From a virus (lineage: Duplodnaviria; Caudoviricetes), in IMG/VR virus record IMGVR_UViG_3300037424_002715, positions 1-50,639 of that record: 50,639 bases of DNA. One strand, 5' to 3'. The first letter of the stretch is position 1. Every line of letters starts with the position of its first letter. The position numbers were made by a program, and so were the translations under genes. A model generated the notes under the pieces. That model ran no database searches. It had not been told where the DNA came from and worked only from the letters and a program-made list of their open reading frames with translations. This document shows positions 2,287 through 49,468 of this stretch, in pieces.

Positions 2287-2538
2287 ATGAAACCAATCGC
2301 TTTTCCCGAACAAACCAAAGTTTTGCAAAAACCTTCCACGATGACAGATGAAGAATGCAGTCCTTTGCCAGTCTATAATGATGGACAGCAGTCCATTTCC
2401 TGCTGGTCTCCAACCTGGAAGGAAAGGTTGTCCATCCTATTCTTTGGCAGGGTCTGGTTGTGGGTAATCATGGGACCAACACAGCCACCGGTCGCCCTGG
2501 AGGGGGCAAAAACCATTTTCAAGAAGGAAAAAGAATGA
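2287..2538 (+). CDS. Phage hypothetical protein
   Basis: AAAGGT RBS; MKPIAFPEQ...ISCWSPTWKERLSILFFGRVWLWV. Confidence 0.75.
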   Translation: MKPIAFPEQTKVLQKPSTMTDEECSPLPVYNDGQQSISCWSPTWKERLSILFFGRVWLWVIMGPTQPPVALEGAKTIFKKEKE

Positions 2539-2672
2539 AAAATATCATTGGCTGGATACTTTATCCATTTTTGATGCTGGCGGCATTGATCATTTTCCTG
2601 CCTGTATATATCTGGTGGCGGAACCATGAAATGAAGATCCTGGTACGGCGGATATTTGGGAGCCTGACATGA
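2535..2672 (+). CDS. Small single-TM membrane protein
   Basis: ATGA overlaps at both ends; hydrophobic helix. Confidence 0.6.
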   Translation: MKNIIGWILYPFLMLAALIIFLPVYIWWRNHEMKILVRRIFGSLT

Positions 2673-3040
2673 ATTACGCTGAAGCGCGGCAACGCATGGG
2701 CGATAACGGTCTACCTTCCGGACTCTGGGATTGGACTTCCAAGAACGATGAGGTTATTCATGCGGCTGGTCCCTGTGCTGCAAGAACCTGCGAACACCAC
2801 TCCAAAGAAGAGGCGGAACGTCATTACTATGACTGGTCGCTGGAAAAAGTGAAGGAATTCTCTCTGGAGAGACAACAAGTGCCTTGTGAGGTCTGTGGAG
2901 AATGGACACAAAAAGGATTACATGCTCCCGGATATAATACTTATGGCTTCGAAGCCTTATTGTGTGATAGGCATCGTAACAAGGAGGAATTGATCAAATT
3001 GAGGCCATTCACACCGGGAATTCAAAGTATTCACTCCTAA
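2669..3040 (+). CDS. Hypothetical Cys/His-rich (possible Zn-binding) protein
   Basis: CEVCG...LCDRH; ATGA coupling to upstream gene. Confidence 0.7.
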   Translation: MNYAEARQRMGDNGLPSGLWDWTSKNDEVIHAAGPCAARTCEHHSKEEAERHYYDWSLEKVKEFSLERQQVPCEVCGEWTQKGLHAPGYNTYGFEALLCDRHRNKEELIKLRPFTPGIQSIHS

Positions 3041-3066
3041 ATAGAACAACTGTTCTATTTAGGAGT
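3033..3066. promoter_or_regulatory. 16-bp-arm inverted repeat centred on a perfect AGAAC-N4-GTTCT (LexA-type) box at 3043-3056
   Basis: ACTCCTAAATAGAACA-AC-TGTTCTATTTAGGAGT. Confidence 0.6.
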
Positions 3067-3094
3067 TCGGCGGCTCTTGAAAGGAAAATTATTT

Positions 3095-3391
3095 ATGGCA
3101 ATAAACCATGATCCTAATAGTGAAGATTTCAAAATGAGAGTGAAAGCCTATATTATGTTCTTTCGCAATATAGGTATCGAAAAGGCTGCTGAGTTCTGTG
3201 TCCACCAGGATGCAACCATAGAAGGCTTGCAGGCGAACAATGATTCTTTTGTGGTGGCATATCATGAAGCCGCCGAACACACGCTTGCAGTCGGACGGGC
3301 GGGTACGTGGATGCAACCCTGTGCTCATGGTTACAATGGGATTTGCCCTGTCTGCGATGCTATGCAAACACCGCCCGCCGCTAAAGCGTAA
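3095..3391 (+). CDS. Hypothetical protein
   Basis: AAGGA RBS; C-terminal CAHG..CPVCD. Confidence 0.6.
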   Translation: MAINHDPNSEDFKMRVKAYIMFFRNIGIEKAAEFCVHQDATIEGLQANNDSFVVAYHEAAEHTLAVGRAGTWMQPCAHGYNGICPVCDAMQTPPAAKA

Positions 3392-3407
3392 TCCGTACAA
3401 TGCACTC

Positions 3408-3605
3408 ATGATCCTTGATATTTATCATATTTACCCGCTCAACGATCTCAAAGAGCACCTGATAGACGGCCCGGAAGCGGCTTTGGGAAAATGTGAGTGT
3501 AAACCGGTCTTGAAAGAGGGTGGGTTGTTGATCGTTCACAATTCCTTCGATGGGCGTGAGATCCTGGAACAATGGGAAGCGGAAAAGGAAAGGCAGATCC
3601 AATGA
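3408..3605 (+). CDS. Small phage protein (H-x-x-P..DL..H, CxC, HNSFDGRE)
   Basis: Metal-binding-like motif pattern; stop overlaps next ATG. Confidence 0.65.
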   Translation: MILDIYHIYPLNDLKEHLIDGPEAALGKCECKPVLKEGGLLIVHNSFDGREILEQWEAEKERQIQ

Positions 3606-3862: not shown

Positions 3863-3870
3863 GATCGAAA

Positions 3871-4887
3871 ATGACACACATTGACTTCTTTGCCACCCAG
3901 TCTCACTATGTTGATCACATGGCTCCCATCTGGAAGGAACTTGGATCCACAGGGTTCTTTTTTGTACCTTCCAACTTGGAAAAACACATGAGTAAATTGT
4001 GGATCCAGCCCTTTCTTCTGGCAGGTGCGGATGCCTATCGGGTCTTCAAGGAAGATACGCCGATCCTGGTCGCGTCCTATGCCGATCTACAGACCGTGTA
4101 CCTGACCAATCGCCACAAACCCATCATTTATATGGAACATGGAGTCGGGATCGTTTATCCAGGATCCAATTACTATGCCGGGAATGTAGGCATGCGCCGC
4201 TTTCCTGTTTTGACCCTGGCACCCAATGAGATTGTTCATCGATTGACAGCCAAAGCCATTCCCGGCATGAAGCAGGCAATCATCGGCACACCCAAACTTG
4301 ATCAGTTTGCCAGTTCCCCCGCCAGCTCACACACCATCCCCAGAAATGCCGTGGTCTGCATGTCCTTTCACTGGGATGGAAAACAGGTTTCTCCCGAAGC
4401 CGGAACAAGCTGGCCTTATTACAAAGGCATCATTCCCGAGCTTCATAAAAGACTGAAACAGGAAAGGGATATCAATCTGATCCTGCATGGACACCCGCGT
4501 ATTCAGGATGAGATCCGGACTTTTGCCGAAACGCACAATGTCCAGTTTATTGCCGACTTCGAAGAGATCATGAAAACGGCTCAACTGTACATCTGTGACA
4601 ATTCCAGCACGATCTATGAGTTCCTGGTTACCGGCTATCCCGTGATCCTGCTCAACAATCCGGCCTACCGGCGTAATATAGACTTCGGCATCCGTTTCTG
4701 GCAATACACGGATATTGGAACACAGGTGGATGTACCCTCCCAACTCTTTATAGAAACGATCATGGCCCTGGATTATGCGGATAAATACAGGTATGCCCGA
4801 AAAAAGGCTGTTGAGTATCTATTTCCTCACCTGGGAAGCAGCACCGCGGTTGCCATCGATGCCATTCACCAGCATTTCCAGAAATGA
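3871..4887 (+). CDS. GT-B fold glycosyltransferase / CDP-glycerol glycerophosphotransferase-like protein
   Basis: MEHG, IGTPKLD, HGHPR and ICDNSSTIYEF...PVILLN motifs typical of TagF-like GT-B enzymes. Confidence 0.7.
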   Translation: MTHIDFFATQSHYVDHMAPIWKELGSTGFFFVPSNLEKHMSKLWIQPFLLAGADAYRVFKEDTPILVASYADLQTVYLTNRHKPIIYMEHGVGIVYPGSNYYAGNVGMRRFPVLTLAPNEIVHRLTAKAIPGMKQAIIGTPKLDQFASSPASSHTIPRNAVVCMSFHWDGKQVSPEAGTSWPYYKGIIPELHKRLKQERDINLILHGHPRIQDEIRTFAETHNVQFIADFEEIMKTAQLYICDNSSTIYEFLVTGYPVILLNNPAYRRNIDFGIRFWQYTDIGTQVDVPSQLFIETIMALDYADKYRYARKKAVEYLFPHLGSSTAVAIDAIHQHFQK

Positions 4888-6241: not shown

Positions 6242-6243
6242 TC

Positions 6244-7068: not shown

Positions 7069-8602
7069 TTTTAGTTCTTTAGGAAAACACGGTCGGTTAG
7101 GAAATCAATTATTCCAGATTGCCTCCACGTTCGGAATGGCGGAGAAATATGGGGCCAGGGCTGTTTTTCCAAGTTGGAGTTATGCTCAGTATTTCGAGAA
7201 TTATCTGCCCACTGGCCGCATGGCATCCACCCGCATCGAAGAAAAGCACTTCCATCACCACGAATGGAATTTGACAGGTGATACCGATCTGCATGGGTAT
7301 TTACAGAGCCCGGCCTACTTCGGAGTGCAAAGACTACGGCTGAAACAGGCTTTTGTGGAAGATATGAAGTCCCGTTTGAACATCTGGGATAAACACACCA
7401 TTTGTCTGCAGGTTCGAAGAGGTGATTATGTCGGAAACGAGAATTATTATCAGGTTCCCATCACCTATTACATCCAGGCACTGAACAAACACTTTCCCGG
7501 ATGGCAACAGTCTAATATCCTGGTGATCAGCGATGACATTGAATACTGCAAGGTCCACTTTGAGTGTCTACCTAATGTGACTTTCGCGCAAGGAAACACA
7601 GATATCGAAGAAATGGCTCTGGCTTCCAATTGCGACGACTTCATCATCAGCAACTCCACATTCGGCTGGTGGACTGCCTGGTTCGGATGTCATGACCCAA
7701 GCAAATACCAGTTTGAGAGAACAGTCATTTATCCAGGGAGAATGTTTACTGGAAAACTGGCTCATTTTGAAACACGCGATTACTGGCCCATACAATGGTT
7801 CCCCTTTTCCATGGATGACCTGCAGCTTGATCTGCGCGATGTGACTTTCACTATGCCAGTGTCCTTCGACCATGAACATCGCAGGCGTAATCTTGGGTTG
7901 AGTCTGTGCATGCTGCAAAAGGATCTCAAGTCCAATCACATCATCTGTGAACAGGGTGGAAACAAGTTTGCAGACATGAAACAATTCGCCAGATATATCC
8001 AGTTGGGAGCGAATATCTTCCACCGCACAAAAATGTTGAATATGATGGCACAAATGGCCGAAACGCCCTATATTGTGAACTGGGACGTAGATGTAATTAT
8101 CTCCCCTGTGCAATTATGGGCAGCTGCCAATTTGCTTCGGAAGGGCATCGATGTAGTCTATCCCTTCGATGGAAAATTTGCACGCATCCCGCGTAATGAC
8201 TGGTTCCAGAAGATCCAGAAATACCTGGATATTGGTGTCGTTGGAAAGACTCCCTTCAAAGGTAGGGAACCTGGTCATATGTCTTCAGGCGGAGCCGTCA
8301 TGTTCAATAAACGATGTTTCGTGGAAGGTGGTATGGAGAACCAGAACATGATCTCCTTTGGTCCCGAGGACTGGGAACGGCACAACCGTTTCAAAACCCT
8401 TGGATATTCCATTGGACGCGTGGGAGGAGCCCTCTTTCATCTCGATCACTTTGTTGGACCTAATTCCAGCAGCGCCAATCCCCATTTCCGTGCCAATACT
8501 GCGGAATATGAGAAGGTCAATAAAATGACCCCGGACCAATTGAGAGCCTATATTGCCACCTGGCCGTGGCCCAAGGAAAAAATCCATGAGAATATTCTAT
8601 GA
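7058..8602 (+). CDS. GT11 alpha-1,2-fucosyltransferase-like domain fused to a GT2/GT7C-like domain
   Basis: GRLGNQLFQ, QVRRGDY and ISNSTFGWW (GT11); WDVDV and GG..ENMISFGPEDWER (GT-A/GT7C); TTG start with AAGGAG RBS. Confidence 0.85.
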   Translation: MIISFSSLGKHGRLGNQLFQIASTFGMAEKYGARAVFPSWSYAQYFENYLPTGRMASTRIEEKHFHHHEWNLTGDTDLHGYLQSPAYFGVQRLRLKQAFVEDMKSRLNIWDKHTICLQVRRGDYVGNENYYQVPITYYIQALNKHFPGWQQSNILVISDDIEYCKVHFECLPNVTFAQGNTDIEEMALASNCDDFIISNSTFGWWTAWFGCHDPSKYQFERTVIYPGRMFTGKLAHFETRDYWPIQWFPFSMDDLQLDLRDVTFTMPVSFDHEHRRRNLGLSLCMLQKDLKSNHIICEQGGNKFADMKQFARYIQLGANIFHRTKMLNMMAQMAETPYIVNWDVDVIISPVQLWAAANLLRKGIDVVYPFDGKFARIPRNDWFQKIQKYLDIGVVGKTPFKGREPGHMSSGGAVMFNKRCFVEGGMENQNMISFGPEDWERHNRFKTLGYSIGRVGGALFHLDHFVGPNSSSANPHFRANTAEYEKVNKMTPDQLRAYIATWPWPKEKIHENIL

Positions 8603-9203: not shown

Positions 9204-10052
9204 ATGAATCTCGGTGTGATCATCCAAGCCAATGGAACAACCGCGGAAGATCTGCGGAAAATCGCTCAATATCGTCCTGCGCATGTCATCCTGGACGTGC
9301 AAACAAATGATGATCTCAGAATAGTCGATCTATTCTCCAAGTTGGAGATTTCAACATTTCTGATGCTGACACCTGGCGTCCTCCGGCCTGAGATCATGAC
9401 CCTGACGGCTGCTACTGCTTTTCAGCTTCTTGGAAATGGACGGCTCTATCTCAAGACCCATTATGGAGCCAACGAAAAGCTGTTTGAAGAGATTCGCCTG
9501 TTCTTCAATCAATTGAGCCAGGAGAAACTGGCGGAGGAAGTCTTTTTGACAGCTCCTGCCAGTCACTTTTTCAATATGGAATCGATTACTACAAAAACCT
9601 TTCGTGTCAGCCGAGCCGTTGGACTGGCTACTCATCCAAGTTACCGGATCAGCAATTCCATTGACTCGTTGAGCATTTTCAACAATAAAGCCTTTTTGCA
9701 GGTACTGCATACGGATGAACAGGCAGAGTTCGATATCCAGATCCTGCCGCCCATTGCAGAAACGTTCGAAGTTGTTACATCCTGGAACAGACCCACTCAT
9801 ATCTGGTCACTGCGTTCCTTTATTTCCTTCAAAGAAAGTGTTCAGTTCCAGATGCCCATTCTGGCAATCTGCAAGATCGTGCGGGACCGGACTTCCGCCT
9901 GGGAGGATCAGACCTGTACTCTTCGAGCAGTACGGAAACTGAACGTGGGTGACCCGGATCTGGAAATCGTGGAATTCCTCAAGGGGAATGTCGGCAAAAC
10001 CCTGGATGGAGATTATGTATATCTCCCCAGTTTTGACATGAAAAGGTTGTAA
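9204..10052 (+). CDS. Hypothetical protein
   Basis: 282-aa ORF with AAGGA RBS; no motif recognised. Confidence 0.7.
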   Translation: MNLGVIIQANGTTAEDLRKIAQYRPAHVILDVQTNDDLRIVDLFSKLEISTFLMLTPGVLRPEIMTLTAATAFQLLGNGRLYLKTHYGANEKLFEEIRLFFNQLSQEKLAEEVFLTAPASHFFNMESITTKTFRVSRAVGLATHPSYRISNSIDSLSIFNNKAFLQVLHTDEQAEFDIQILPPIAETFEVVTSWNRPTHIWSLRSFISFKESVQFQMPILAICKIVRDRTSAWEDQTCTLRAVRKLNVGDPDLEIVEFLKGNVGKTLDGDYVYLPSFDMKRL

Positions 10053-14152: not shown

Positions 14153-14208
14153 CCTTACAGTTCCGTTGAGAAGTCCCATTCTCCAAGTTGGAAAGCCACC
14201 TATCAATA

Positions 14209-14237
14209 TTGCAATTCTGTAACATATACGTTATTAT
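14209..14237 (+). promoter_or_regulatory. Putative sigma70-type promoter for the head genes
   Basis: TTGCAA-17 bp-TATTAT; a palindrome copy (14181-14193) lies 15 bp upstream. Confidence 0.45.
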
Positions 14238-15922: not shown

Positions 15923-16726
15923 ATGAAAATGAACTTTTTGCGTGGGCTCTTTGCTTTACCTGAAATATGGTTCGAAGCAAACGCTGGTGGCGGCTCCGGT
16001 AGTGGCTCTGGTACGGGGACAGATCCCACGGTCCAGCAGCTCCAACAGCAGGTCACAGAGATACAAGCGAAATACGAAGCGCTCCATCAGAAAGTCGAGA
16101 AGGGCGAACTAATCGAACCGGCCACCTTCATCAAGAAGGCCACGGAATCAGGCGAGCTTTATAGCAAAGATCGCTACGTTGGTCTGCAGAAAACCATGCA
16201 GACTGAAAAGGATGCGGCGGATGCCCTCAAGGTATCTGTAGCCGCATTGACTGCCAACGAGACAGCCTTGAAAACCCAGCTTTCCAACTTGGAAAAAGAA
16301 AAGGGTGACTTGAATGCAAAGCTTGTTGAGACAGGCAAGACTGTGGAAGACCTGACTCGCAAGAATAAACGTTCCGCTCTCATTATGGAAAAGTTTCCAG
16401 TCCTGGCTCCCTTTGAAGTAAAGGGACTTCTGCCTATCGGTGATGATACACAGTTGGAAACTCTTCTCTCTAATTTTGCTGGACAGTTGGATACTATGAC
16501 CACCAAGGCCAAGGATGAATTTGGCAAAGGTGGTGGTACTAAAACTCCTGCCGGCAAGGAAACAACCACAACACCGGATGGGGAGCTGGATGCCAAAGGA
16601 TTGCTCGCCAAAGCACAGGCGGCTTTGAACGATACCACTGTGCAAGATTTTGCAGTCCGTAGAGCCAACTATGACAAGTTTTATGACCAGTACATAGCGA
16701 AGCTCCAACAGGACGCAGTAACCTAA
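15923..16726 (+). CDS. Capsid scaffolding protein
   Basis: Gly/Ser-rich N-terminus and long coiled coil; directly upstream of the MCP. Confidence 0.75.
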   Translation: MKMNFLRGLFALPEIWFEANAGGGSGSGSGTGTDPTVQQLQQQVTEIQAKYEALHQKVEKGELIEPATFIKKATESGELYSKDRYVGLQKTMQTEKDAADALKVSVAALTANETALKTQLSNLEKEKGDLNAKLVETGKTVEDLTRKNKRSALIMEKFPVLAPFEVKGLLPIGDDTQLETLLSNFAGQLDTMTTKAKDEFGKGGGTKTPAGKETTTTPDGELDAKGLLAKAQAALNDTTVQDFAVRRANYDKFYDQYIAKLQQDAVT

Positions 16727-18169: not shown

Positions 18170-18826
18170 ATGGGTACTATAAAATTTAAGGAACTCAAGC
18201 AAAAGATCATCCGCTCCGTGGAAGATACGGTGGATGAAAATGCTTCTCCACTCAGCGGCAGCGATTATCTTGCCGCCAATCTGGAGGATGCAGCCCATGC
18301 TGCTTTGCACGCTATTGCTTCCCGCTATTGGAAACGTGCTGTATTGTCTGTAAATGCTGATGCGGAATCAGTCTCTGTACCTGACGATTTTATTGATGTG
18401 GATGGAGTGTATGACAAAAAGGATGCCTTGTTTATCCCGAAGCTGGCTTTCCAAGTTGGAAATGCGCTGGCAACGACTGTAGGGAATGGCTTCTTTCTCT
18501 ATCCAAGTGGGACGATCACATTCATCAACAAAATTGGTTCTTTGGGTGCAACCGTGTTTTACCAGTCTCACTGGACACGTCCCGAGAAAGATAACGACCT
18601 TCTGGACTGTCCGGACTTTCTTGTTACTGCACTGGTTCAGTATAGCGGCGCTTATCTATTGGGTGCCAACGCAGTTTCCAGTGCCAGTATCCGCCAATAC
18701 AACACGAAGGTCGATAGCGGTCAACCCGGGGATATTCCCCAAATGAAAATGTCAAACTTTCTCATGGCACGTTACGAGGAAGAACTAAAACGCATTCCCA
18801 TGCTGGAAAAGGGACGTGTGCAATGA
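18170..18826 (+). CDS. Head-tail adaptor protein
   Basis: Follows MCP; SVPDDFIDV and ALVQYSGAYL patterns. Confidence 0.65.
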   Translation: MGTIKFKELKQKIIRSVEDTVDENASPLSGSDYLAANLEDAAHAALHAIASRYWKRAVLSVNADAESVSVPDDFIDVDGVYDKKDALFIPKLAFQVGNALATTVGNGFFLYPSGTITFINKIGSLGATVFYQSHWTRPEKDNDLLDCPDFLVTALVQYSGAYLLGANAVSSASIRQYNTKVDSGQPGDIPQMKMSNFLMARYEEELKRIPMLEKGRVQ

Positions 18827-20514: not shown

Positions 20515-20541
20515 GAAATTCCAAGTTGGAGAAATAGCGAA

Positions 20542-30900: not shown

Positions 30901-31302
30901 AAGAAACATGGTGGTGAGACCTCTGAATTTGCAGCAGGTGGTTTCCCGCCATTAGGCAAGGTTTCTTCTGTTGGTGAACAGGGTTGGGAGTTCTCTGTCG
31001 GTGGAGAAATTATCAACCATGAGGACTCTTCCCGGCTGGCATCCATGGGATTACGTCCAGGTTCTGCCTCAGAAGAAACCACATCCCGAATCGATGCTTA
31101 TATGCAGCGGGCCGCAACTGAGATGATGGGTCAAATGATGCAATCCACAAAACAAAACAATCTTCTGGACAGCATCTCCATCGATTATCAAACGCCCTCC
31201 CAACAGCAAACCTCTTCACAACCCGTTACGATCGTTCTCCAGGTTGGAAATGAGGAGTTGAAACGCATGACAGTCGATATTATGAAAGAGCAATTCCGAT
31301 GA
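21907..31302 (+). CDS. Tape measure protein with N-terminal putative two-barrel (DPBB) RNA polymerase
   Basis: Synteny; C-terminal half has hydrophobic helices, a Trp-periodic coiled coil and FAAGG...VGEQGWE; N-terminal half has R1076-D-P and D1135-V-D-G-D1139. Confidence 0.85.
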   Translation: MPKGMNTGPKRWNPQTSQWDDVSSTEKMNYWEAKANNESEAIQKPDIPASLAQETTRQRIGVPPAAETPAPPKAPRQRGPNPMRQADETWLKTLQGNLGTGYIAQWTSPKLVGKQVEIVNPNFVAEPLTFNVNLQHNVSKVGTVPIINENLTPGGVNAPAGVPIRAGVQVSVHDAIKANPEKGTQAKPESIDVVGFTPTTRLSHLVKNAFENANKQEDLPIRKAFQQAVAGVRQEEYEENATRANKQSPQAAINKHLAEVTVNVAGGPFDTKRGQYALAEVLGGTRAPGVQEPTAFTPVEQGTQAPEQKQFFQALREQGVVFNQRGNLQTPGNVITRTNENATPVARLTDAMKSIFNKSYGIGGLSTRMRPVTFEEDTQGRNVPRFVEPAPNTQQALLAGDQPQVTTSNIVQPAGDKFPVTLETIAMPRDISGILPGGALKSVNPQRQEYDYGHGTKLGMPLPEMNARDILEGKVKFNLQDFQGVGNQLGAGSRNLSLGTMSYKGSEIDLQTSKGEEALFPSSSPYLQIPSHYNPTTMEFTQGGAEEDVSTSGLIKKLQRQTGLKVRRSNLPGTALVMPAIGVGLARSRGGGGKFTENPITSMNVFQDTSRGTQQAVDIISSEGAKAPDVAQHLMGALTNPQQSALFNLWAENLPARERKAARVAVSNVEQQLARSSQQRAVPLDLNQAAAAYQEANPAFVGGGRELAAQIYQQQFVNYAQDPKMQARNLAATGSQYTLDPLKLGRFSPESMGLMRENYIRANTQPGRDMTAEQAGQAFDVRYRPAAEGLQAGEYPEVTYHPQPGEEYFRGRVERTRINAAETYSNEMGMAVSSAINTAYPEVGRQTGIDTENARPAQGAEAAGSFLNYLVNQRAVAAGGAAPENVRQISTDEAQRIRDIPKEVSGKAYNETIAKMLGVEERDQRTLLQFQGEGQPLIPNPNAMNQRGVFENLEGTSIGKVGLQAETLMREAAIATQTKGLALNPESRVQKASTRLFGTLDDLSANMIDRTRRIQSDWAIRAEATVNPMLNPGEFTMSKPYMREIASRISRQSGRSVETEYKSLSQRKDLGGIIARDPLISESESSLIPAKYVSESEMVKRFGSDTEAAALYKKQNAQNLTMGISADMPMQVLGDVDGDKYIAFLNLKYGNKGRVQTYAYPQEMLTTTEKAKARELAKAGGNVQTANQFNANVQGFEGVDPLAKGLGKISSTDRPYQEVVEESLRMADKGTTVGPTYGVATAMQAANIVQRGTSETNTDIELAYEEAIDIRGLGKSRMASAISSVNFGKDVQGTGYLGYSTEDPVDERDIRGTGPRRTNRMYLGGKSVEKDVNLYGVQSFMRQAARDIASPTKSGNYLTTAATMANMFGRDKEDTAELQKILETTPEPQRGNVLEARIDQFYNEGEGTRREKDYAMFQTQFGLQQAGTALVKDRADEGVANQLAEYLSGGDKEKGTFLKKQWGAVGVISQLRKKAAYIENKGRVLNRPLLENALSFVKPGDPVHRLISGMMDVKPGTTNAPAPTPVSNLENLQSAQQAVLTETARQPITPTEQEAAPLQQAQENLVQTQQNVSPAPMDDLDRELMAAESAVGLNREGMTEEENKRLNGFIRMGPKSQAESNEYSSLLQKARKQPSSSTDEPDLLAQRRQQEVAFSKTLKDEFGEPPGGSGLGNIMPPPGGGQPPSGGSRYPSRPPTGNPNVAVQRAYAQTIRHGDEASGLMKELSQTFGVPIDELVPEISARMQTDPRGTLAKMSPQTVAKLREFPGIIRNRAMGMAQLGRSRYAEDPRYVKALSPFNVTALPMEQAAEIGAAFPGREGNLSPRTLMQAEAMPQEQGFQDLVKTMQEQGVYDQTAFTSGGDFRQRAEAVLQSPQNRAALNRAMRVASNIKSRELLPEGVANIVDFGKAAKAESPGLVKETGASTGQISINIPLDKIEKLNKLYEEQSTITERLSKARETNNKHDERTLEVEKAKVDLNIRKQQGAIYTEGLQQEVSGYRAMITSGEAPAGTVKKLMASEKQLSSLQAEQQAEVADEGVGPFGRTARRLLGGFGMMYARSVFNFATGGLGYGERERAGLEGALSQGAYQSTGMARVAYNQNQVLQNQMALQGTNFNPITGMQSAMAQTPIARDVWNMGVAGVGAWGFSQYAASTMPKGDAWGQRLSAASPFIGIAAAGLSTLADVSSRAKDPYGVGERIGSATGPGGGMPGINDAWAMGWLKMTNKEGFGQATQGSAATLLGRQAFQQGLSINEMQNAKLQDEYGYYAQRGLTTTKGPGGQQYARAGDVLDKTQQFDIVAQQLIRQNPSLSQETAAQTAGFLQSYAPGMALNDKRIAALSADYQSGGRNATYAQQMLGMSGMAPSQMYDTSQGGINRIARVQMQLNAAPMDMSQRALMEAGLQRGGQIAGVEQLAPWITQRGGKEEVAAAAQYWQGIGSLSNQQFGVYQTQAQASLLAQQANLPGVAAPTLSGVQGITDPAKLAMLSSQAQAEAGRAQQRMNFAQGQMQQSYNFGNVGLGNQMYNQMTNVTPGQEWAYNDLFNMDKRMLGFAGTQGMNFNQMPGISQIGGGQISAGYYNQMDVGMNGQLTGLGYGRTSFAQAGGFNAQQMAGNIFGKDWQNNARLSQGGIQAGLKGQDLLAPITINGQTTTQVGGTMGMQLYQDQLQYQQQMADIARQQKGNQLQFAFTTGVGLSQYNGTVDPRTGKSFGNLGATGGFWGLEDQSRRMSNQQQEWSFGFQERQMNLGNQQFMQNMGLQQQGQNMQRAWTRQDWRFNEETRGMQWGWKQEDFQEQARFMTGRERRVAERGMERETIMHDREGEQIDKQKKRQQESWDLEDERFDTQIRQHRESLEMQEEQLKKQREFFAERKKLEEEQVKLQRAYFIQQNALQKEATAAAAHYATENLKLKETFTLLQIASELTGGQLDLIRKDGFEPLKQIFADMGPDIQKIIEAFLGLSGADEDSDLSDFGSTAYNKPTSDKTTVGDFPSNVGTPPSKKKHGGETSEFAAGGFPPLGKVSSVGEQGWEFSVGGEIINHEDSSRLASMGLRPGSASEETTSRIDAYMQRAATEMMGQMMQSTKQNNLLDSISIDYQTPSQQQTSSQPVTIVLQVGNEELKRMTVDIMKEQFR

Positions 31303-31727: not shown

Positions 31728-34700
31728 GCCGCGATGTTTCTTCAAGCATGCTGGAAGCCATAGCCAATGAACACGGCTATAAATTCATTTCCAAGGTGGA
31801 AGTATTTCCATCACGGGTTTACTTCGATATCATTACAGACGACAATGCCTTTCCCAGTCCGGATACCCAACCTGCCAGCAATGATCCTGTACGTCAGGAC
31901 ATCCTGCATCATTCCGGATTAGGGTTGGTTACTTTTTACTGCGATGGGGATCTAAAATATGCCCTTCAGGGAAACTCCACGCCTGTTACCACAAATCTCA
32001 ACTCATCCAAGAAACCCGGTGTTTTTGGGGATATGTTGTATCTCATCGAAGGAACAGATGTAAATCGCTATGAAATAAACTGGACGGATATTTCCAACTT
32101 GGAGACCAGTCCCTTTTCCCTTGTGCAAACTCCGGTTCCTTCCAATGCTCCGGTTGTTGTTCATGGTATCAGTGAGACGGAGTGTGTTGTTTTTGGAAAC
32201 GGCGATGGCGGGTTCTCCATACATTACTTCAACGGAATAACGGAAATACTTTCTCCCGCCCGTTTTATGTTTCCAACCAGCGTGGATTGGGCAGAGAGTT
32301 CCCGCAGCATGGAATCTCTGGGCATCTTTTCCACAGCTTTTCGTCTGGGAAATCGTGTCTTTGCCTATATCAGTAATGCCTGCAGCGGCATAGTACAGGG
32401 TATTTTCTATGACCTCGACTCGGGAGTATGGAGTGATGTCTTTACTGCACTGCCCACAGACCTGCAGGTCAGTCTGTGTGAATTTCGGATCGCCAATTCC
32501 TTTGTCAGAAACGGAGTGGGCTATCTGGTTGGGCAATTGCTTCGAACCGATATATTCCAAAGCGCCTATCCCTACACTCTGATCCTCAAGACAGTGGATG
32601 GAAAGAGCTTCTCCATTGATCGCTTTACTCTGGTATCCAATCTGGGATATCGTTTTCTGGGTATCGTCGGGTCAGACAATCACCTTTATCTGGGAAACTG
32701 CAACCGTGTTTGTGAAGATCTGTCCACTTGGGTATTCGATGGAAATGATGACAGCACCAGCCCCATGACTTCCATTGCCTTTGAAGATCTGCTTGCCACG
32801 GAAGATGTCAATGCACAACGTATCACACTCAATCTCCCGGCAGGTGATGAGCAGGTTTATGAGAATGCTCATTATGTGAAGGGAGCACGTCTCAAACTCT
32901 ATTCAGGCTATCATACCTCCCTAGGTAATGAATATGTCCTGCATGGAACTTACATCATAGAAACCATCGGGAAATCCTTTGCCAATGGACAAAGAGGTTT
33001 CAAGGTCACCTGCACACAGGAGGGACATTGGCGGCTGACCGGTGAAAGCATGCCTTTCTATGCGGAGATCTTTGGATTATCCTCCCTGTATGATCCTCTG
33101 ACTGAGGCATCTGGTAAATTGTTCGTGGCACCCTCCGGGGTTCGAACTGACACACATTTCTATGTGGACTTTTGGAACCATGAAGGCTACGCTAATACAG
33201 AAGAGGGAATTACCGCTATTGATTTGAATTACAACGGTGGTGTCTCACACACAACTATCTCCGGTGCTCATAAAGTAGCCATGATCACCAAGGATGATCT
33301 GAGCGACAAACTCAACTCTGCCACCAATCCCAAGATCACGGGAACCACCTTGACAGTCAAACTGTATGGCTGGTCACGTGCCCTGGCAATCGGTCAGGCT
33401 AACGATATTGTCAACCTTATTCTGGTGACCTGTGATGAGGATGGCAATAACGAGTTGACCGAAATCACAACAGATACCCAGAACTGGCCGATCACCTATC
33501 CCTATCAAGGCGCAGGGATCAAACCTATTACCCTGACACTCACTGGTCAAACAGTGGAACGTTTCATCAAAAAGGTGGGTGTGGTCTTCGAACAAAGTGT
33601 TGGTACAAACTTTACGATCGCCAGAGTGGAATTTGTGAATAATGTGGAACTGCCCATCTCTCTGTCGCTTGCCAACACTCCATGGTCTGTGGAAGCCGAT
33701 GGAACCTTCAAGGTTCCGGGTAGCGGCCAGCCTTTTATCATGTTCGCACAAAAACCCTACAATGCCTGGAATTTTACCCTGACCTCTCTCTTTGAGAATA
33801 CAGTCACCGGAGGAGTGACGGGTTATGCTACAGCCGTAGGTTTGGTGGGGCTGGCTCAGGATGCAGCCAATTATGTCCTAGCTCGTTTCGACAAGACTTC
33901 CGGAAAAGTACAGTTGGTCAAATCCCGTAATGGCATCGAGACAGTTCTGGATGAAGCCACTCCTGGATGGACAATTGAAGATATACAGGGCATCCAGTTT
34001 ATTCACCGCGATGGTCACTTTACCATCATGATGTATCGTGACAGCACCACCCAGTATGAAATGGTACTGGAACATGACTGGATCGCAGCAGACGGTTTTA
34101 TGTATACTTCCGCCATTTCCACAAGGAAGTGCGGCATCTATGGAGCAATTCTTTCCCCGTTTGTCAGAACCCTCTCCTACGCCAGTGGTTCACAGGATAC
34201 TGTTTCCAACTCAGACGGATTGCCAATTGATCCCCTGGCTGATATCACTGATTTTCCATCTTCTGGAAACCTGCGCATCGGAGACAATGTGTACAGCTAT
34301 TCCGGCAAACTGGCGCATGCCTCCTATGTCGATGGACCCTATCAATTCCGTACCTGCGGTATCTACCCACCTCCCTTTGGAAATGGACAGGCTGGACTGG
34401 AATGCCTGGCTTTCGATTGGTATGCAGCGGAAAACTTATATGCAGGGAAATTCATCTCCATAGATAATGGCTCCACCTATATTTGTTCAGCTTCCTTGTG
34501 GCGTGTCTTTACCACCACACACAATGTCAAAAACTATATCCTGGGACGCAGCCGCCACTATTCCAGTAACAACAGCATTGGACGTTCCACGGCTACGCTT
34601 GCCAACAAGATCATGCTTGGCATTGGTGGTTTTACGGGTGTTGGTTTGATCAGTGGGACACAGACACGTCATCCTGTGGGAGAATATGCCTTCCTAGAAC

Positions 34701-35827
34701 TGAGCGGAACCATCAAATGTTTCTGGTTCATGGGTACAGGTGGGGAAAGCGATACCACCATCCGGGATCTGATCAATACCATCCATGCCTTCTCTGGAGC
34801 CCGGGCGACCTTTCCCGGAGATTATTATTCCGCTTCTGAGAACATCAATGGGGAGACAACCATCCTTCAGGACGATTACGCCGAAGGCTTTGACCTGGAA
34901 TTTGACCTGGCAGCTCCGGCTTCCTTTGAGATACGGACCAATGTCAAAATCAAACCAGACAAGTATGAAGAAAAAGCCATCATCGAGACGGATACCGGTA
35001 CAAAACTTGTGTTTACAAATCTGGGATCCGGTTTCTATAGTGTAGCCCTGATCTCAACCCCATCCGCCCAACAAATGTACAAGTTCCGTTATTCTTCAGG
35101 AAGTGCCAAACAGCACTTCCGTGTTCTTTATCACGAAAACAACGTCAGTATTTACCATAACTACAAGTGGGTGACCTCCATTACGCTGGACGAATTGATC
35201 TATACCCAGACTAATTATACTGACATCAAAGTCTATACTTCCTCCAACTTGGAATTTCAGGACATCTGGGTCAGAGACCTATCGGATTGGCGGGAGGCTG
35301 TATATATTGATCTTGAGACAGACGGAATGGCTGCTCTTTCCTCCATTATCCAGGAACGGCCTATTGAGTCCAACAGCAACCCGGATGGATCCATACGCTG
35401 GTATTATGAGATGGCAAGACCGGAAGTGACACTCCTGACTGAACCAATCACACATGAGCAGGATGAATCCTTTCCACCTGAAGGAGCCAGTGATGCCATT
35501 GTTTACGGTTCCAAGGATGTGGTCACCATTCACAGCGATCTATTCGCCCAGGATCTGGGATTCTCCACAAAGATCATCCGGCTGCCCAATCTCAATGTTG
35601 GTAAAGTGGAGGCAGCCTACCGCATGTTGAAACGCGCCTACGAAAGCAGGGAACATCATTCCCTAAGCATTCGTCCTGACGTTCGTATTTTGCCTGGTGA
35701 TGTATTGCATGTCACCTATACCCTTTCTGTAACCAACAGATTGATCAGCTTTTCGACGATCGTGGAATCGGTGACTTGTGGACTTCAGTCTTCCATGCGT
35801 ATTACAGGAAGAGGATATTTACCCTAA
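31724..35827 (+). CDS. Baseplate hub / tail-associated protein with inserted beta-rich domains
   Basis: 1367 aa; hub-like EYVLHGTYIIE and DVRILPGDVLHV segments; synteny. Confidence 0.7.
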   Translation: MSRDVSSSMLEAIANEHGYKFISKVEVFPSRVYFDIITDDNAFPSPDTQPASNDPVRQDILHHSGLGLVTFYCDGDLKYALQGNSTPVTTNLNSSKKPGVFGDMLYLIEGTDVNRYEINWTDISNLETSPFSLVQTPVPSNAPVVVHGISETECVVFGNGDGGFSIHYFNGITEILSPARFMFPTSVDWAESSRSMESLGIFSTAFRLGNRVFAYISNACSGIVQGIFYDLDSGVWSDVFTALPTDLQVSLCEFRIANSFVRNGVGYLVGQLLRTDIFQSAYPYTLILKTVDGKSFSIDRFTLVSNLGYRFLGIVGSDNHLYLGNCNRVCEDLSTWVFDGNDDSTSPMTSIAFEDLLATEDVNAQRITLNLPAGDEQVYENAHYVKGARLKLYSGYHTSLGNEYVLHGTYIIETIGKSFANGQRGFKVTCTQEGHWRLTGESMPFYAEIFGLSSLYDPLTEASGKLFVAPSGVRTDTHFYVDFWNHEGYANTEEGITAIDLNYNGGVSHTTISGAHKVAMITKDDLSDKLNSATNPKITGTTLTVKLYGWSRALAIGQANDIVNLILVTCDEDGNNELTEITTDTQNWPITYPYQGAGIKPITLTLTGQTVERFIKKVGVVFEQSVGTNFTIARVEFVNNVELPISLSLANTPWSVEADGTFKVPGSGQPFIMFAQKPYNAWNFTLTSLFENTVTGGVTGYATAVGLVGLAQDAANYVLARFDKTSGKVQLVKSRNGIETVLDEATPGWTIEDIQGIQFIHRDGHFTIMMYRDSTTQYEMVLEHDWIAADGFMYTSAISTRKCGIYGAILSPFVRTLSYASGSQDTVSNSDGLPIDPLADITDFPSSGNLRIGDNVYSYSGKLAHASYVDGPYQFRTCGIYPPPFGNGQAGLECLAFDWYAAENLYAGKFISIDNGSTYICSASLWRVFTTTHNVKNYILGRSRHYSSNNSIGRSTATLANKIMLGIGGFTGVGLISGTQTRHPVGEYAFLELSGTIKCFWFMGTGGESDTTIRDLINTIHAFSGARATFPGDYYSASENINGETTILQDDYAEGFDLEFDLAAPASFEIRTNVKIKPDKYEEKAIIETDTGTKLVFTNLGSGFYSVALISTPSAQQMYKFRYSSGSAKQHFRVLYHENNVSIYHNYKWVTSITLDELIYTQTNYTDIKVYTSSNLEFQDIWVRDLSDWREAVYIDLETDGMAALSSIIQERPIESNSNPDGSIRWYYEMARPEVTLLTEPITHEQDESFPPEGASDAIVYGSKDVVTIHSDLFAQDLGFSTKIIRLPNLNVGKVEAAYRMLKRAYESREHHSLSIRPDVRILPGDVLHVTYTLSVTNRLISFSTIVESVTCGLQSSMRITGRGYLP

Positions 35828-38148: not shown

Positions 38149-38687
38149 TGAGTACGAGTCCAGCAAAGGGTGATCGCTCTGCGAGAGACATGGCATTTCC
38201 TGGTCTTCATGCAACGGACCTCGAAGACAATACTCCCATCAACCATGTGCCTACTCCAGGCCCAATTGGGAATGTGCCTGTCTCAGATGGTAATAAATGG
38301 GTGTCACAAGCGTTGGCAACATCAGACCCTCCCATTATGACCCTTGGTACCATGGAAGGCGAGTTGTCAGTTCTGGCATCACCGCTCAAGATCTACAATC
38401 TTTATGGAATGGACAGAACAATCACAAAGGTGTTTCTTTCCGTGGGAACGGCCCCGACAGGCGATGATCTTATTGTGGACGTGCTGGTGGATGGAGTCAG
38501 CATTTATCCTGGAGACGAATGTGTTATTCTCAATGGAGAAGACACAGGAGTCACAACCTTGATTTCCAGTCCTATCTGGTCAATGAACAGTTATCTAACC
38601 TGGGAAATTCTCCAAGTTGGAAGCTCCACAGCCGGTGAAGATCTGGTTGTACATATTGTTCATGAAGCAGCAATTGGAGGAAGCTAA
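38148..38687 (+). CDS. Minor tail/fibre protein
   Basis: GNVPVSDGNKW and VGTAPTGDDLIVDV...QVGSSTAG modules. Confidence 0.65.
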   Translation: MSTSPAKGDRSARDMAFPGLHATDLEDNTPINHVPTPGPIGNVPVSDGNKWVSQALATSDPPIMTLGTMEGELSVLASPLKIYNLYGMDRTITKVFLSVGTAPTGDDLIVDVLVDGVSIYPGDECVILNGEDTGVTTLISSPIWSMNSYLTWEILQVGSSTAGEDLVVHIVHEAAIGGS

Positions 38688-40407: not shown

Positions 40408-40432
40408 TTTCAAGTTGGAAAAGGTTATTTGA

Positions 40433-42755: not shown

Positions 42756-43174
42756 TGGACGCAAATCTCCAAGTTGGAAAAACCTATGAGTTTACTCACA
42801 CACGCAAGGGAAAATTCAAGGCACAGTTGATTGAGATCATCCCAGGGGATGAGGCAGACACGCAACTCCTGAAGGTGAAAATCGATACGAGAAGGGGGAG
42901 AGGACAGGAACGGTTAGCCAGAGTCAAGGCTGATATCACCGTGACCAACCTGCGCCCCTCACTAATCAGCGATATCGTACAATGCGAAGATGAGGCATGG
43001 CTAATCGAAAAGCGGGTTCCTGAGGAGTTATCCCGTGAAGAAAAAGAACGTAGAGCATACGAGGCAGAACAGAAAAGACTAGCACAAACCATAGCACAAA
43101 CTGTTATTACTGAGATCAACAAGCCAAAACCGAAAGGCAATTGGCGTGACCTGTTCCGGCGCAAGCCTCAGTAA
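42755..43174 (+). CDS. Hypothetical protein
   Basis: GGAGG RBS 9 nt before ATG 42755. Confidence 0.6.
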   Translation: MDANLQVGKTYEFTHTRKGKFKAQLIEIIPGDEADTQLLKVKIDTRRGRGQERLARVKADITVTNLRPSLISDIVQCEDEAWLIEKRVPEELSREEKERRAYEAEQKRLAQTIAQTVITEINKPKPKGNWRDLFRRKPQ

Positions 43175-43203: not shown

Positions 43204-44259
43204 ATGGCCGACTGGCCCCCAAAAAAGAATGGTACTTTTACAGTATCGTTCCCAATCTACGACAATGATGGGGATTTAGTAACTGGAGCCGCAGCACTAG
43301 ATTCAGAAGTCTCGATCGATGGTGCAGGTTTCACTGACTGTACGAATGAGGCTGGCGAGGATGGTACCAGTGGCACATATGATCTGGTACTTACTGCAGG
43401 CGAAATGAATGGTGACAGGATCAAGGTTATTACCAAGACTACGACCCCGAACGCCAAAACTGCTGTGAATGTGATGTACACTGCCACTCGACAATTAGTG
43501 GATCTGGCCTTTCCAGTCACTTCTGGGCGCGGCGTTGACGTGGACGCCAGTGGTGGTGTGGAAGTTGGCTCATTCCAGGCAGGAGCTATTACAGCAGCTG
43601 CAATTGCGACAGATGCAATTGACGCCGATGCCCTGGCTGATGGCGCAATTACTGCCGCTGTATTTGCTGCGGGAGCCGTCGATGCTGCAGCCATTGCCAA
43701 TGGTGCGATTGATGCTGCAACTTTTGCAGCAGGTGCGATTGATAATGCTGCTTTCAATGTCACTGAGACTCTCACCGCCAACCCTGCTGCAGGTGGAATC
43801 TCCAATACCAGCTTTGCAGCAGGGGCCATCGATGCGGCTGCGATTGCTCCTGATGCAATCGGTTCTTCTGAATTTGCACAAGCTGCTGCGGATAAGATCT
43901 GGGCAAGTGCCACCCGCAACCTGACTGCACTTGGCTTCCAACTGGCGTCTGCGGACTTTACTGCCGGATTCCTGACAGCATCTCTTATCGCCACCGGAGC
44001 CGTGGATGCGGATGCCCTGGCTACAGATGCAATCAATGAAATTGCTGATGGTCTTATGACACGCGCTTCCTCCAACTGGGAAGCATCTGCGCCCGTAAAG
44101 TCCCTGGGTACGGCTGTCATGAAAGCAGTTCACCGTCTGCGCGATAATGCCGGAGCTCTTGAGATCTATCGCAGTGATGGGACCACAGTACATGCTTCAC
44201 AGACTGTTACCACCGATGCTGCCGCGGAGCCAATTGATGAGCTGACTGGAGCCGTATAA
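43204..44259 (+). CDS. Fibre protein with Ala-rich decapeptide repeats
   Basis: GGAGGT RBS; GAITAAAIAT/DAIDADALAD-type repeats. Confidence 0.75.
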   Translation: MADWPPKKNGTFTVSFPIYDNDGDLVTGAAALDSEVSIDGAGFTDCTNEAGEDGTSGTYDLVLTAGEMNGDRIKVITKTTTPNAKTAVNVMYTATRQLVDLAFPVTSGRGVDVDASGGVEVGSFQAGAITAAAIATDAIDADALADGAITAAVFAAGAVDAAAIANGAIDAATFAAGAIDNAAFNVTETLTANPAAGGISNTSFAAGAIDAAAIAPDAIGSSEFAQAAADKIWASATRNLTALGFQLASADFTAGFLTASLIATGAVDADALATDAINEIADGLMTRASSNWEASAPVKSLGTAVMKAVHRLRDNAGALEIYRSDGTTVHASQTVTTDAAAEPIDELTGAV

Positions 44260-44491: not shown

Positions 44492-44866
44492 ATGTCAGCT
44501 CCTCGTGGCCGCCAAGTCACCAACTTTGGTGGCTTCCTAGATCCCTTTGCAGCTGGTGCATCGAGTCTAGTTGAGGCTATTTACCCGGCTCCAGCTTCAG
44601 TAAGTACTGCGGCTGGAGATCCGGTTGTTTATGCTCCTGTAGAAATACGAGAGTTGATCGCCAGTGCCTGGACAGACACCCTGCTCGGACAGATCATCCA
44701 GCAGACAGTAGCTCCCGATATTGTCAGAGGAGTGGTTTATTCCCGAACCAGCCTGTCTGGAATTGTAATGGCGAGAAGTTCCAAATATGAAGTATTATTC
44801 ACCAGAGAGAGCCTGAGAAATACACTAAACACCCTCGTTTCCAACTTGGAGAAGGCAGAACTCTAA
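44492..44866 (+). CDS. Hypothetical virion protein
   Basis: 124 aa, coupled to the downstream gene. Confidence 0.55.
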   Translation: MSAPRGRQVTNFGGFLDPFAAGASSLVEAIYPAPASVSTAAGDPVVYAPVEIRELIASAWTDTLLGQIIQQTVAPDIVRGVVYSRTSLSGIVMARSSKYEVLFTRESLRNTLNTLVSNLEKAEL

Positions 44867-46336: not shown

Positions 46337-46365
46337 TATCAGGAATGATAGCTGAAAGGAGAGTC

Positions 46366-46743: not shown

Positions 46744-46754
46744 AGGAGAACAAC

Positions 46755-47108: not shown

Positions 47109-47127
47109 AAAAGAGTAGCAGGAAAAC

Positions 47128-47155
47128 AAAGGACGAGGAAATTTCCTCGTCCTTT
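47128..47155. terminator. Bidirectional terminator between the convergent arms
   Basis: Perfect 28-bp palindrome AAAGGACGAGGAAA|TTTCCTCGTCCTTT with T-runs on both strands. Confidence 0.8.
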
Positions 47156-47529
47156 TAGATCCACCCATTCAGAATGTCAGTAAGCATGGCGTTGCCTGCC
47201 AGTTCGTGTTCGTACCATGTCCCATAGAGAAATACAATTGAGTTGGCTTGAAGCTGTCTCACACTTGTAAGCTGTTCCACATGGACATTATCCACACCGT
47301 ATTTGTCAATCAACACGCCACGGATCTTGCGATATTCATCCAGACTGCCGCATAGGATAAGCACATCATAGCCAGCAGCCAATGAACACAGGAAATTACC
47401 GGATAGAATAGCTGGCAGACCAGTGTTGTAATCCAGCATGACAGTCCGATATGCCCCACATAGACAAACTTCCACCTTCCCGAAACGAGAAGCATGGACT
47501 ACCACAAATACATGCTCATGCTTCGGCAT
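47155..47529 (-). CDS. Hypothetical protein
   Basis: 124 aa; HEH...CLCG. Confidence 0.6.
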   Translation of the reverse strand: MPKHEHVFVVVHASRFGKVEVCLCGAYRTVMLDYNTGLPAILSGNFLCSLAAGYDVLILCGSLDEYRKIRGVLIDKYGVDNVHVEQLTSVRQLQANSIVFLYGTWYEHELAGNAMLTDILNGWI

Positions 47530-47989
47530 CAGGATATTTCTCTTTTGCCCATTTTATAATATGTTCTTGAAGACCCGGCAAAAAGATTAGTCGGCTTTTG
47601 CCCACAATCTCCAGCTTGCCTTCTTTTACAAGAAATGGGATATAGCGTGACATCCCGGATTTCGCCATAGGAACCAGCGGAGCAATTTCATCATAGATGG
47701 GTGGCCTACCTTTTGTTCGATACGCATCCTTGACAATCTTTAGAATACGATCCTTTACCCATTCCCTGTGGTCTATAATGAATTTCCGATCACGATTGGC
47801 TTGGAGTGAAATGTTACGTCTAGCAATGTCACGATTGGCAGCATATTTCTCCACCGACTCTTTGATGACAAAGCCCCTACCAGCAACTTGCAAATGTCCA
47901 CGTGTCTTATAGACCCAGATGGTGCCAACAGTCACTCCAAGAAAATGAGCCGCTTCCTGGTCTGACATCTTATACGTCGTCTTGGTCAT
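47516..47989 (-). CDS. DNA-binding protein: excisionase-like HTH plus LexA-like winged HTH
   Basis: SDQEAAHFLGVTVGTIWVYKTRGHL; ILKIVKDAYRTKGRPPIYDEIA...YIPFLVKEGKL. Confidence 0.75.
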   Translation of the reverse strand: MTKTTYKMSDQEAAHFLGVTVGTIWVYKTRGHLQVAGRGFVIKESVEKYAANRDIARRNISLQANRDRKFIIDHREWVKDRILKIVKDAYRTKGRPPIYDEIAPLVPMAKSGMSRYIPFLVKEGKLEIVGKSRLIFLPGLQEHIIKWAKEKYPDAEA

Positions 47990-48305
47990 TATCGTCCTCT
48001 CTTGGATCCGGCAGTTGCCGTTGTGTAAGATGCAGGGTCCAGATCTCAATTGGCTTGGCTTTGAGTCCAGCCGCGGCACGTTCCGCTGTTTCTTGATCAA
48101 CCGGTGTCAATCCCCAGATTGAATCCGGACTTTGAAATTTGGTAAAGCCTGGCTGTCCATTCACGGTTGGAACATCAATGCGCAGAAACCCACGACCTGC
48201 CAGATTGACCGTGGTCACCTTTCCTGCCAGCATGGTCCGTCCCATTAGCTCGACGATTGCGTAGCTGTCAAAACTCTCGATTTGTGGTGTTGCTTCAGTT
48301 GACAT
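47970..48305 (-). CDS. Phage hypothetical protein
   Basis: AAGGAG RBS; YAIVELMGR..LAG.V....AG.GFLRIDVP. Confidence 0.75.
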   Translation of the reverse strand: MSTEATPQIESFDSYAIVELMGRTMLAGKVTTVNLAGRGFLRIDVPTVNGQPGFTKFQSPDSIWGLTPVDQETAERAAAGLKAKPIEIWTLHLTQRQLPDPREDDNDQDDV

Positions 48306-48354
48306 GATCTACTCCTTTGAATTTTTTCATAGTGATTTCTCTGATATCGCTAGA

Positions 48355-48386
48355 ACAGGGAGGGAGTATCGATACTCCCTCCCTGT
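48355..48386. terminator. Perfect 32-bp palindrome downstream of the ATPase gene
   Basis: ACAGGGAGGGAGTATC|GATACTCCCTCCCTGT. Confidence 0.6.
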
Positions 48387-48391
48387 GACTT

Positions 48392-49468
48392 TTATGCAGG
48401 TTTCTTTTCCTTGATAGCCCTTGTGACATACTCAACAATCAGCTTATGGTTTTCCACTGTATATGCCGGGGCATCATCTGCTGTAAGCACAGCATTGATT
48501 TCCTCGATGGTCGCTACATCTTTCAGGTCATCATATAGTTTGACCTTGAAAGCACGAATAGCAATGTCCTGTGCTTCCTGATCAAATTCAGGTTCAGGTA
48601 CGGTAATCTTGCTCAGATCTGCCTTATAAGTACGTTCACGATGCCACTTCCAAAGAGTAGGCCAACCCTGCCATTTGAATTGTTCCGGCACTCCCGGGAA
48701 AGCCATTTTGGGATTCCAGGCATCCATGGTAACAGTGGGTAATTGACTGGCCTTCCGAGTAACAGGATCTACCCGATCCAATGACCAAATGACATCTGCA
48801 TGCTTTACAAACACGTCCAACACTTTGGCGCTTTTTCCCAAGATCTTCATCCTGGGTTTACCTTCGGCATCGTATTCCTTGGAACCATAATATGCCCAGA
48901 TATTGTGTAGTGGCGCTGTAACAATCAGGGAGATATTCTGTTCGCGCAAATCAAGAATGAACTCTTCAAAGAAACGCTTGAACACCAGACTGATGACTCC
49001 AGGATCAGTAGGCCGCCATGTCTTCTGAAGCAATTGCTGAATGGACTGGTCCAATCCATAGATCCTGGCAGTTTCTATTGCTTTGACTTTATCTCCCCAA
49101 TGCTTGAACATATTCTCCTGCCAGATACCTGCATCATCAATGATAATCACCTGTGGTGCACCATCTTTCCATGTCTTGGCATGTGCCGTCTGCATAAGAA
49201 CTACAAAACGATGGGGATCAAATCGACCTTCACAAAGCGGAGTAAACCCAAACAGTTCCTGGTCAGGATAATCCCTACCGTCCAGACTTCTATGAACTTC
49301 ATTACGCATTTCCGGATCGATTACAATGCGTTTTACCAGATCTTCGATCCCTTTCCAGGTTGGAAAAACGTAACTGAGACTTGTGACAGATTTTCCACCA
49401 CCCCATTGACCTGTCAGAATAAATACTTTTGCCCTTGAAGGCGCTTGCGGGAAACTAGGTTGTGTCAT
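48392..49468 (-). CDS. P-loop ATPase, AAA_24/Sak4-like recombination protein
   Basis: Walker A GQWGGGKS, VIDPE, Walker B VIIIDD, HADVIW; AAGGAG RBS. Confidence 0.7.
   Translation of the reverse strand: MTQPSFPQAPSRAKVFILTGQWGGGKSVTSLSYVFPTWKGIEDLVKRIVIDPEMRNEVHRSLDGRDYPDQELFGFTPLCEGRFDPHRFVVLMQTAHAKTWKDGAPQVIIIDDAGIWQENMFKHWGDKVKAIETARIYGLDQSIQQLLQKTWRPTDPGVISLVFKRFFEEFILDLREQNISLIVTAPLHNIWAYYGSKEYDAEGKPRMKILGKSAKVLDVFVKHADVIWSLDRVDPVTRKASQLPTVTMDAWNPKMAFPGVPEQFKWQGWPTLWKWHRERTYKADLSKITVPEPEFDQEAQDIAIRAFKVKLYDDLKDVATIEEINAVLTADDAPAYTVENHKLIVEYVTRAIKEKKPA

Follow-up and report, generated by a model that had tools for sequence, protein, structure and literature searches.

A phage-specific palindrome dispersed across an uncultured tailed phage and its possible role in a KorB-like operator network

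Here we describe a 13-letter palindrome, YTCCAASTTGGAR, that recurs every few kilobases, genes included, in DNA of an uncultured sediment phage (Duplodnaviria; Caudoviricetes; IMG/VR record IMGVR_UViG_3300037424_002715, positions 1 to 50,639; this whole stretch of 50,639 nucleotides is referred to as the window). The palindrome is kept at the DNA level and is specific to the phage, and it is likely a site for a dimeric protein of the phage itself. KorB, a ParB-family CTPase clamp, loads at OB sites of plasmid RK2, slides along the DNA and silences promoters, according to the accessible part of PMC11790492; by analogy, an operator network of the KorB/OB kind is the best reading of the phage sites. 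A ParB-family protein is the leading candidate for the reader; whether one has a KorB-like role in the window phage is, in our estimate, evenly balanced. From sequence comparison we infer binding, the identity of the reader, its presence in the window phage and repression. Neither YTCCAASTTGGAR nor genome-wide operator networks in these phages were found described in the literature searched, in which most subscription journals were not covered.

Results

The initial annotation of the window listed 13 exact copies of YTCCAASTTGGAR and at least six copies with one mismatch; every exact position was confirmed and six one-mismatch copies were located. Its estimate of well below one copy by chance also held, with 0.33 copies on average and never more than 4 at up to one mismatch in 100 dinucleotide shuffles, against 19 observed. 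YTCCAASTTGGAR is the commonest gapped palindrome of the window by a wide margin. Open reading frames (ORFs) hold 11 of the 13 exact copies, in all three frames (7/1/3) as annotated, whereas 200 synonymous-codon resamplings gave a mean of 0.14 and a maximum of 1; protein coding therefore does not explain the palindrome, and the proposed constraint on DNA rather than protein stands. An RNA hairpin loop is impossible, because the palindrome centre measures 0–1 nt (1 nt in the window, 0 nt in the relative G012). This palindromic constraint fits putative sites for a dimeric DNA-binding protein, as had been suggested.

The exact copies are spaced more evenly than random (coefficient of variation (CV) 0.42, P=0.0016), and their smallest gap, 2070 nt, was attained in 0 of 5000 random placements. 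With one-mismatch copies added, spacing is still more even than random (CV 0.61, P=0.0135). Gaps close to 2.1 kb, pointed out in the initial annotation, account for 5 of the 12 (2070–2168 nt), the other seven ranging from 3150 to 5965 nt. Gaps between copies in the same-motif relative G001 span 1951–22726 nt, so the value of 2.1 kb is a lower limit in the window phage and not a family-wide period.

Comparison with related phages had been advised at the outset. A search with the putative capsid protein returned 40 viral, 5 genome and 71 metagenome loci; a relative of the window portal protein was found in none of the GenBank phages. Each of the five long relatives carries one genome-wide palindrome, the same in one and different in four: G001 has the window motif YTCCAASTTGGAR (9 exact copies), G010 has YTCCTANTAGGAR (20 copies), the complete genome G011 has GTTCGYANTRCGAAC (19 copies), G012 has YTCCAATTGGAR (14 copies) and G008:C23, whose phage is truncated by the contig start, has TTCCGRNNYCGGAA (5 copies). 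When the motifs of the six long records (13, 9, 20, 19, 14 and 5 copies) were counted across one another, all cross-counts were zero except for one stray copy. Partial records carry the further palindromes TTCCGGYRCCGGAA, TTCCGAYRTCGGAA and TTCCTWNWAGGAA. Exact copies are evenly spaced in G012 (P=0.002), G010 and G008 (both P=0.03) and not in G001 or G011; with one-mismatch copies included, G001 and G011 become even and G010 loses its evenness. Nucleotide alignments to the relatives were too diverged and covered no palindrome site.

On a quick capsid tree, the window motif occurs on three separate branches of one 25-row clade, a distribution that fits either an ancestral motif or exchange. Scanning viral contigs for at least two exact copies identified 3 of 121 loci, namely the window phage, G001 and G004. 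The last, an AT-rich viral record (L042; 6328–7376) outside the capsid relatives found, carries its two copies 1 kb apart. Two-copy palindromes in G018, L330, L333 and L298 fell below significance and are leads only. A (T)CTTG-N5-CAAG(A) repeat in L335 (5–9 copies) was considered as a motif variant and dropped, since it is clustered within 2.8 kb (L335:2524–5316) and absent from L337.

The host of the window phage is likely a member of Anaerolineae, because capsid relatives (~55% identity) sit in Leptolinea assemblies and the phage genes of G008:C23 continue into chromosome-type genes (NAD ligase, MgtE, Nramp). Four of the five genome loci from the capsid search belong to Leptolinea (Anaerolineaceae) and the fifth to a Magnetococcales bin. 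Among 301 Anaerolineaceae genomes, YTCCAASTTGGAR occurs at all in 64 and never in more than three copies, compared with up to four for a reversed-pattern control, and of the 8 copies of its own motif in G008, 5 sit on the phage portion of a single contig. A host-wide chromosomal motif, one of the options raised initially, is thus not supported in this family, itself assigned as likely host from the relatives.

Site positions are retained at orthologous places despite the change of motif, namely ahead of the portal gene, at its end and behind the tail-tube gene. The position before the portal gene is common to loci of eight relatives with four motif types, and G010 also has a site there. In the window this is the intergenic exact copy at 14181..14193, 15 nt upstream of the −35 box of a sigma70-like promoter on the plus strand (TTGCAA-17-TATTAT, 14209..14237; consensus match only). 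By eye, the site lies 1–16 nt upstream of such a box in the window, L157, L123, L141, L313 and G020. Such variation in distance speaks against a site for an activator and would fit occlusion or a sliding clamp. The position after the tail tube is common to loci of seven relatives with different motifs, where the site lies ahead of the following ribosome-binding site and usually downstream of a hairpin; the window copy (20519..20531) lies between a 12-bp hairpin (20484–20514) and the next ATG (20542), with its GGAG at the expected ribosome-binding-site position. Shared among same-motif phages only is a site within the putative scaffold gene (aa 113–131), found at the same place in loci of seven same-motif relatives including G001 and represented in the window by the exact copy at 16282..16294 (gene 15923–16726, aa 120).

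Promoter proximity was assessed with predicted promoters in 11 records, in which 69 of 103 sites lie inside genes. Five of the 34 intergenic sites abut a strong sigma70-like consensus promoter (1.1 expected), compared with 1 of the 69 coding sites (1.8 expected).

The gene for the reader is probably outside the window, which is a partial tailed-phage genome (50.6 kb, 61% complete by CheckV). Near-complete relatives measure 83–89 kb, so the window phage should reach ~85 kb, with ~35 kb, the replication arm, absent. This arm was not recovered, as the contigs of run X1 stop at the same point as the window. The last gene before the contig end encodes a predicted membrane protein with a coiled coil and a helix-turn-helix (HTH)-like C-terminus (49805..50599, minus strand), which could tether phage DNA to the membrane. 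Its homologs lie on the replication arm of G001, G011 and G012, and in G001 and G012 a ParB gene follows ~16 kb further along the arm, beyond where the window ends. Three candidate readers, ParB and the products of two families termed c26 and c29, are encoded in relatives on the arm that the window lacks.

The G001 ParB (260 aa) matches ParB in PDB (E=2e-6) and a ParB-like family in PHROG (E=7e-11), and contains GRRR and ENAQR CTPase motifs and an HTH. Orthologs are present in G010 and G012, the family motifs being GRRR, ENAQ(R/S) and the HTH. G001 and G012 have the half-site TTCCAA in common, and their recognition helices are more alike than that of G010 (n=3). ParA was sought with PF13614 and found in none of five records, three of them complete. 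Scans for further ParB or c26 loci yielded only genomes already known, and a helicase-based scan was dropped after returning unrelated DnaB genes.

The remaining window copies are distributed as follows. Upstream of the terminase gene, a one-mismatch copy lies within ORF 2272–2538 (2408..2420), and exact copies lie within a glycerophosphotransferase-like gene (3969..3981; gene 3841–4887), a glycosyltransferase gene (7167..7179; gene 7028–8602) and ORF 9204–10052 (9335..9347). The head-tail adaptor gene (18170–18826) contains the exact copy at 18449..18461, with a counterpart at the same place in L141. The putative tape-measure gene (21907–31302, 3131 aa) harbors an exact copy (26484..26496) and, at its end, a one-mismatch copy (31237..31249), and ORF 31724–35827 contains a one-mismatch copy (31789..31801) followed by two exact ones (32092..32104 and 35242..35254). 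Further exact copies are found within ORF 38064–38687 (38610..38622), close to the start of ORF 42746–43174 (42767..42779) and at the end of ORF 44492–44866 (44839..44851). One-mismatch copies also occur ahead of the ORF at 40433 (40408..40420), within a tail-fibre-like gene (44070..44082; gene 43204–44259) and within the minus-strand ORF 48392–49468 (49353..49365). The copies at 14181, 20519 and 40408 are all intergenic, as annotated. An HTH/winged-helix-like protein, initially put forward as a candidate reader, is encoded on the minus strand at 47516..47989.

The window encodes a terminase with an intein, a portal, an adaptor and a tail tube; the proteins labelled capsid, scaffold and tape measure were named from position and size rather than from family matches. 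The terminase large subunit (11095–13755) comprises 886–888 aa in the window and G001, where it includes the intein in the window, and 537–570 aa in the others. It is preceded by a cluster of glycosyltransferase-, glycerophosphotransferase- and sulfotransferase-like genes (3841–8602), and similar clusters exist in relatives. At the end of the tail region, 45289–45885 encodes an HD-GYP-like HD-domain protein (HD_5, E=4e-19). In G011 the putative capsid gene is split with other ORFs between its parts (44984–47147), possibly by an intron or mobile insertion. TTAA is nearly missing from the window (4 versus 77 expected) and ATGCAT is missing (0 versus 11), which suggests avoidance of host restriction sites; TTAA counts in the relatives vary widely, from 12 to 245 per genome. 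In G002, a record of the same phage, position 3065 is joined to another 4.7-kb segment and then to window positions 1–3147 in inverted orientation (L187:4281–12148), and the extra segment carries three further exact copies; this arrangement reflects either a 7.8-kb segment that can invert or an error of assembly.

Discussion

In the mechanism we propose, the reader would be an orphan ParB-family CTPase clamp whose gene lies in the ~35 kb absent from the contig. By analogy with KorB on RK2, the clamp would load at each palindrome, then travel for kilobases along the phage DNA and cover it. The minority of sites near promoters, above all that of the portal/head operon, would be proximal operators; the majority, inside genes, would let the clamp load at a distance. 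Together the sites would hold back the structural genes and mark the genome as self among related phages.

Several observations weigh against this scheme. No ParB gene is seen in the window, a partial contig, and none was detected on G008:C23, where the phage is cut by the contig start; in the complete G011, which carries 19 sites, the profile of this ParB family itself matched nothing at E<=5. In the aligned helix of G001 and G012, the ParBs are without the Arg/Lys of GHA(R/K), the second ParB binding motif as defined in the available portion of PMC3597684. Integrase was found over cut-off in 0 of 5 records (one weak match) and resolvase in 0 of 5, leaving a dormant state that requires silencing without support from gene content. 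Of the 5 promoter-adjacent sites, 3 represent one orthologous promoter (portal), and the promoter score threshold was picked after inspection of the data. Furthermore, 20 of 38 scanned records have no palindrome at corrected E<0.05; these are mostly 10–26 kb fragments (G013 has 31 kb), and the host portion of G008:C23, scanned as a control, is among them. Family members thus need not all carry one.

Since G011 has sites and no detectable ParB, the adjacent c26 or a small winged-helix protein stays a live candidate. That c26 (~350 aa; encoded right after ParB, G001 75655–76641) reads the palindrome, by itself or aided by an optional ParB clamp, is unlikely in our view. It is present in G001, G010, G012 and the ParB-less G011, with a weak ortholog at the syntenic place on G008:C23 (E=0.003, profile excluding that copy), and the family numbers 193 representatives. 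A confident model (pLDDT 96) of its conserved N-domain contains a helix-loop-helix segment, and the coiled coil that comes next could allow dimerisation; acidity is lowest in the G011 copy, whose isoelectric point (pI) is 7.8 versus 4.8–5.5. Nothing ties c26 to DNA binding, however: no Pfam family fits the N-domain, four of five copies are acidic, and the divergence of c26 parallels that of neighbouring replication genes, so that c26 carries no motif-specific signal. Structural comparison identified no clear counterpart (Foldseek E>0.3; for the N-domain, a best VIA Z of 5.3), which implies neither a new nor a known fold. The profiles of c26 and ParB could not be aligned with each other. Searches of 300 further Anaerolineaceae genomes detected no c26, and 400 genomes of the class gave only weak coiled-coil matches. 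If c26 were nonetheless the reader, it would define a new class of lineage-specific proteins that coat the genome and mark it as self; ParB would be a clamp that the system can do without, and the reader and its roughly twenty sites would have changed in concert whenever lineages split.

The small winged-helix protein c29 (78–102 aa; G001 3319–3555, beside helicase genes) could instead be a classical repressor, with the palindromes as its dispersed, immunity-type operators that differ by lineage, a model we regard as quite unlikely. c29 is basic (pI 9–11.5) and occurs in all five long relatives, its gene is followed after 2 nt by a palindrome in G001 and contains one in G012, and lineage-specific dispersed operators are described for repressors of cluster A mycobacteriophages in the accessible part of PMC9283540. 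Yet in overall identity the c29 of G001 is closest to that of G011 (42%), whose motif is most different, rather than to that of G012 (34%). A small, non-spreading repressor poorly explains the 69 of 103 sites that sit in genes without a nearby promoter, and even spacing is unexpected for ordinary operators. Neither a sensor or cleavage domain nor an integrase was found.

A ParB-type reader might also organise, tether or segregate extrachromosomal phage DNA, through host ParA/SMC or a membrane anchor, and regulate no genes. The even spacing in the window, G012, G010 and G008, the distance of most sites from promoters, the lack of an integrase in the three complete genomes, and a membrane protein that ends in an HTH-like segment and is encoded along the same arm in 4 of 6 records are all in keeping with such a role. 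We consider it improbable, as no phage ParA was found and the portal-promoter sites are kept across four motif types; moreover, phage and chromosome-type genes adjoin on G008:C23 and G013 carries a provirus classification, indicating that some family members integrate. That a host protein or the HTH protein at 47516–47989 reads the sites is very improbable: motif differences could reflect host differences and the HTH protein is basic (pI 10.1), but host-family chromosomes stay at control level, G008's motif is mostly limited to its phage contig, and a single-protein query (no positive control) found no HTH counterpart in G010, G011, G012, G008 or same-motif G001, which makes it an unlikely reader.

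If the ParB-based operator network holds, Chloroflexota phages would possess a plasmid-style, genome-wide regulatory system, and orphan phage ParBs would gain a testable job. The natural series of at least five related palindromes offers a ready panel for studying the joint change of a DNA-binding protein and its roughly twenty sites. As a complete genome in which sites occur and ParB was not detected, G011 puts to the test the idea that ParB is the reader in every case, and it draws attention to the c26 family.

Dispersed protein-binding sites are known on the phage-plasmid genomes of N15 (SopB centromere sites) and P1 (C1 operators); both have full partition systems, the N15 sites are few and the P1 operators are asymmetric. 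Cluster A mycobacteriophages (L5, TipsytheTRex) resemble the present family in having 13-mers over the phage genome that vary among relatives, with ~20–26 operator/stoperator sites, as far as the available text of PMC9283540 describes. Stoperator-like silencing was among the options proposed in the initial annotation; true stoperators are, in the same portion of PMC9283540, asymmetric, orientation-dependent, monomer-bound and located in promoters or short intergenic gaps, whereas the sites here are palindromic and mostly coding (11 of 13 in the window), and a silencing or segregation network of the KorB/OB kind fits best. Canonical parABS and orphan ParBs, the latter common on mobile elements, have in common with the phage system a ParB CTPase fold with an HTH and a palindromic site, according to the accessible sections of PMC12704722, which describe no genome-wide cognate sites for phage orphan ParBs. 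Unlike in canonical parABS, the phage sites are genome-wide rather than clustered, and no parA was found.

The closest parallel would be KorB/OB of the IncP-1 plasmids RK2/RP4. OB is a 13-bp palindrome located 4–10 bp or 45 to >1000 bp from promoters, in the parts of PMC11790492 and PMC3597684 available. The phage palindrome likewise has 13 bp with an S centre, is dispersed over a similar-sized replicon at sites that may be both promoter-proximal and distal (promoters predicted), and is accompanied in same-motif G001 by a ParB-family protein with CTPase motifs. Differences are that the carrier is a tailed phage and not a plasmid, that no IncC/ParA partner was found, that the site has another sequence, changing between lineages, and that the complete G011 has sites and no detectable ParB. 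No KorA homolog was identified, no search aimed at KorA having been made. To the known systems this family adds a graded motif series at shared positions and a complete member without detectable ParB. Although not a strict member for want of IncC/ParA, the phage network resembles KorB/OB by analogy.

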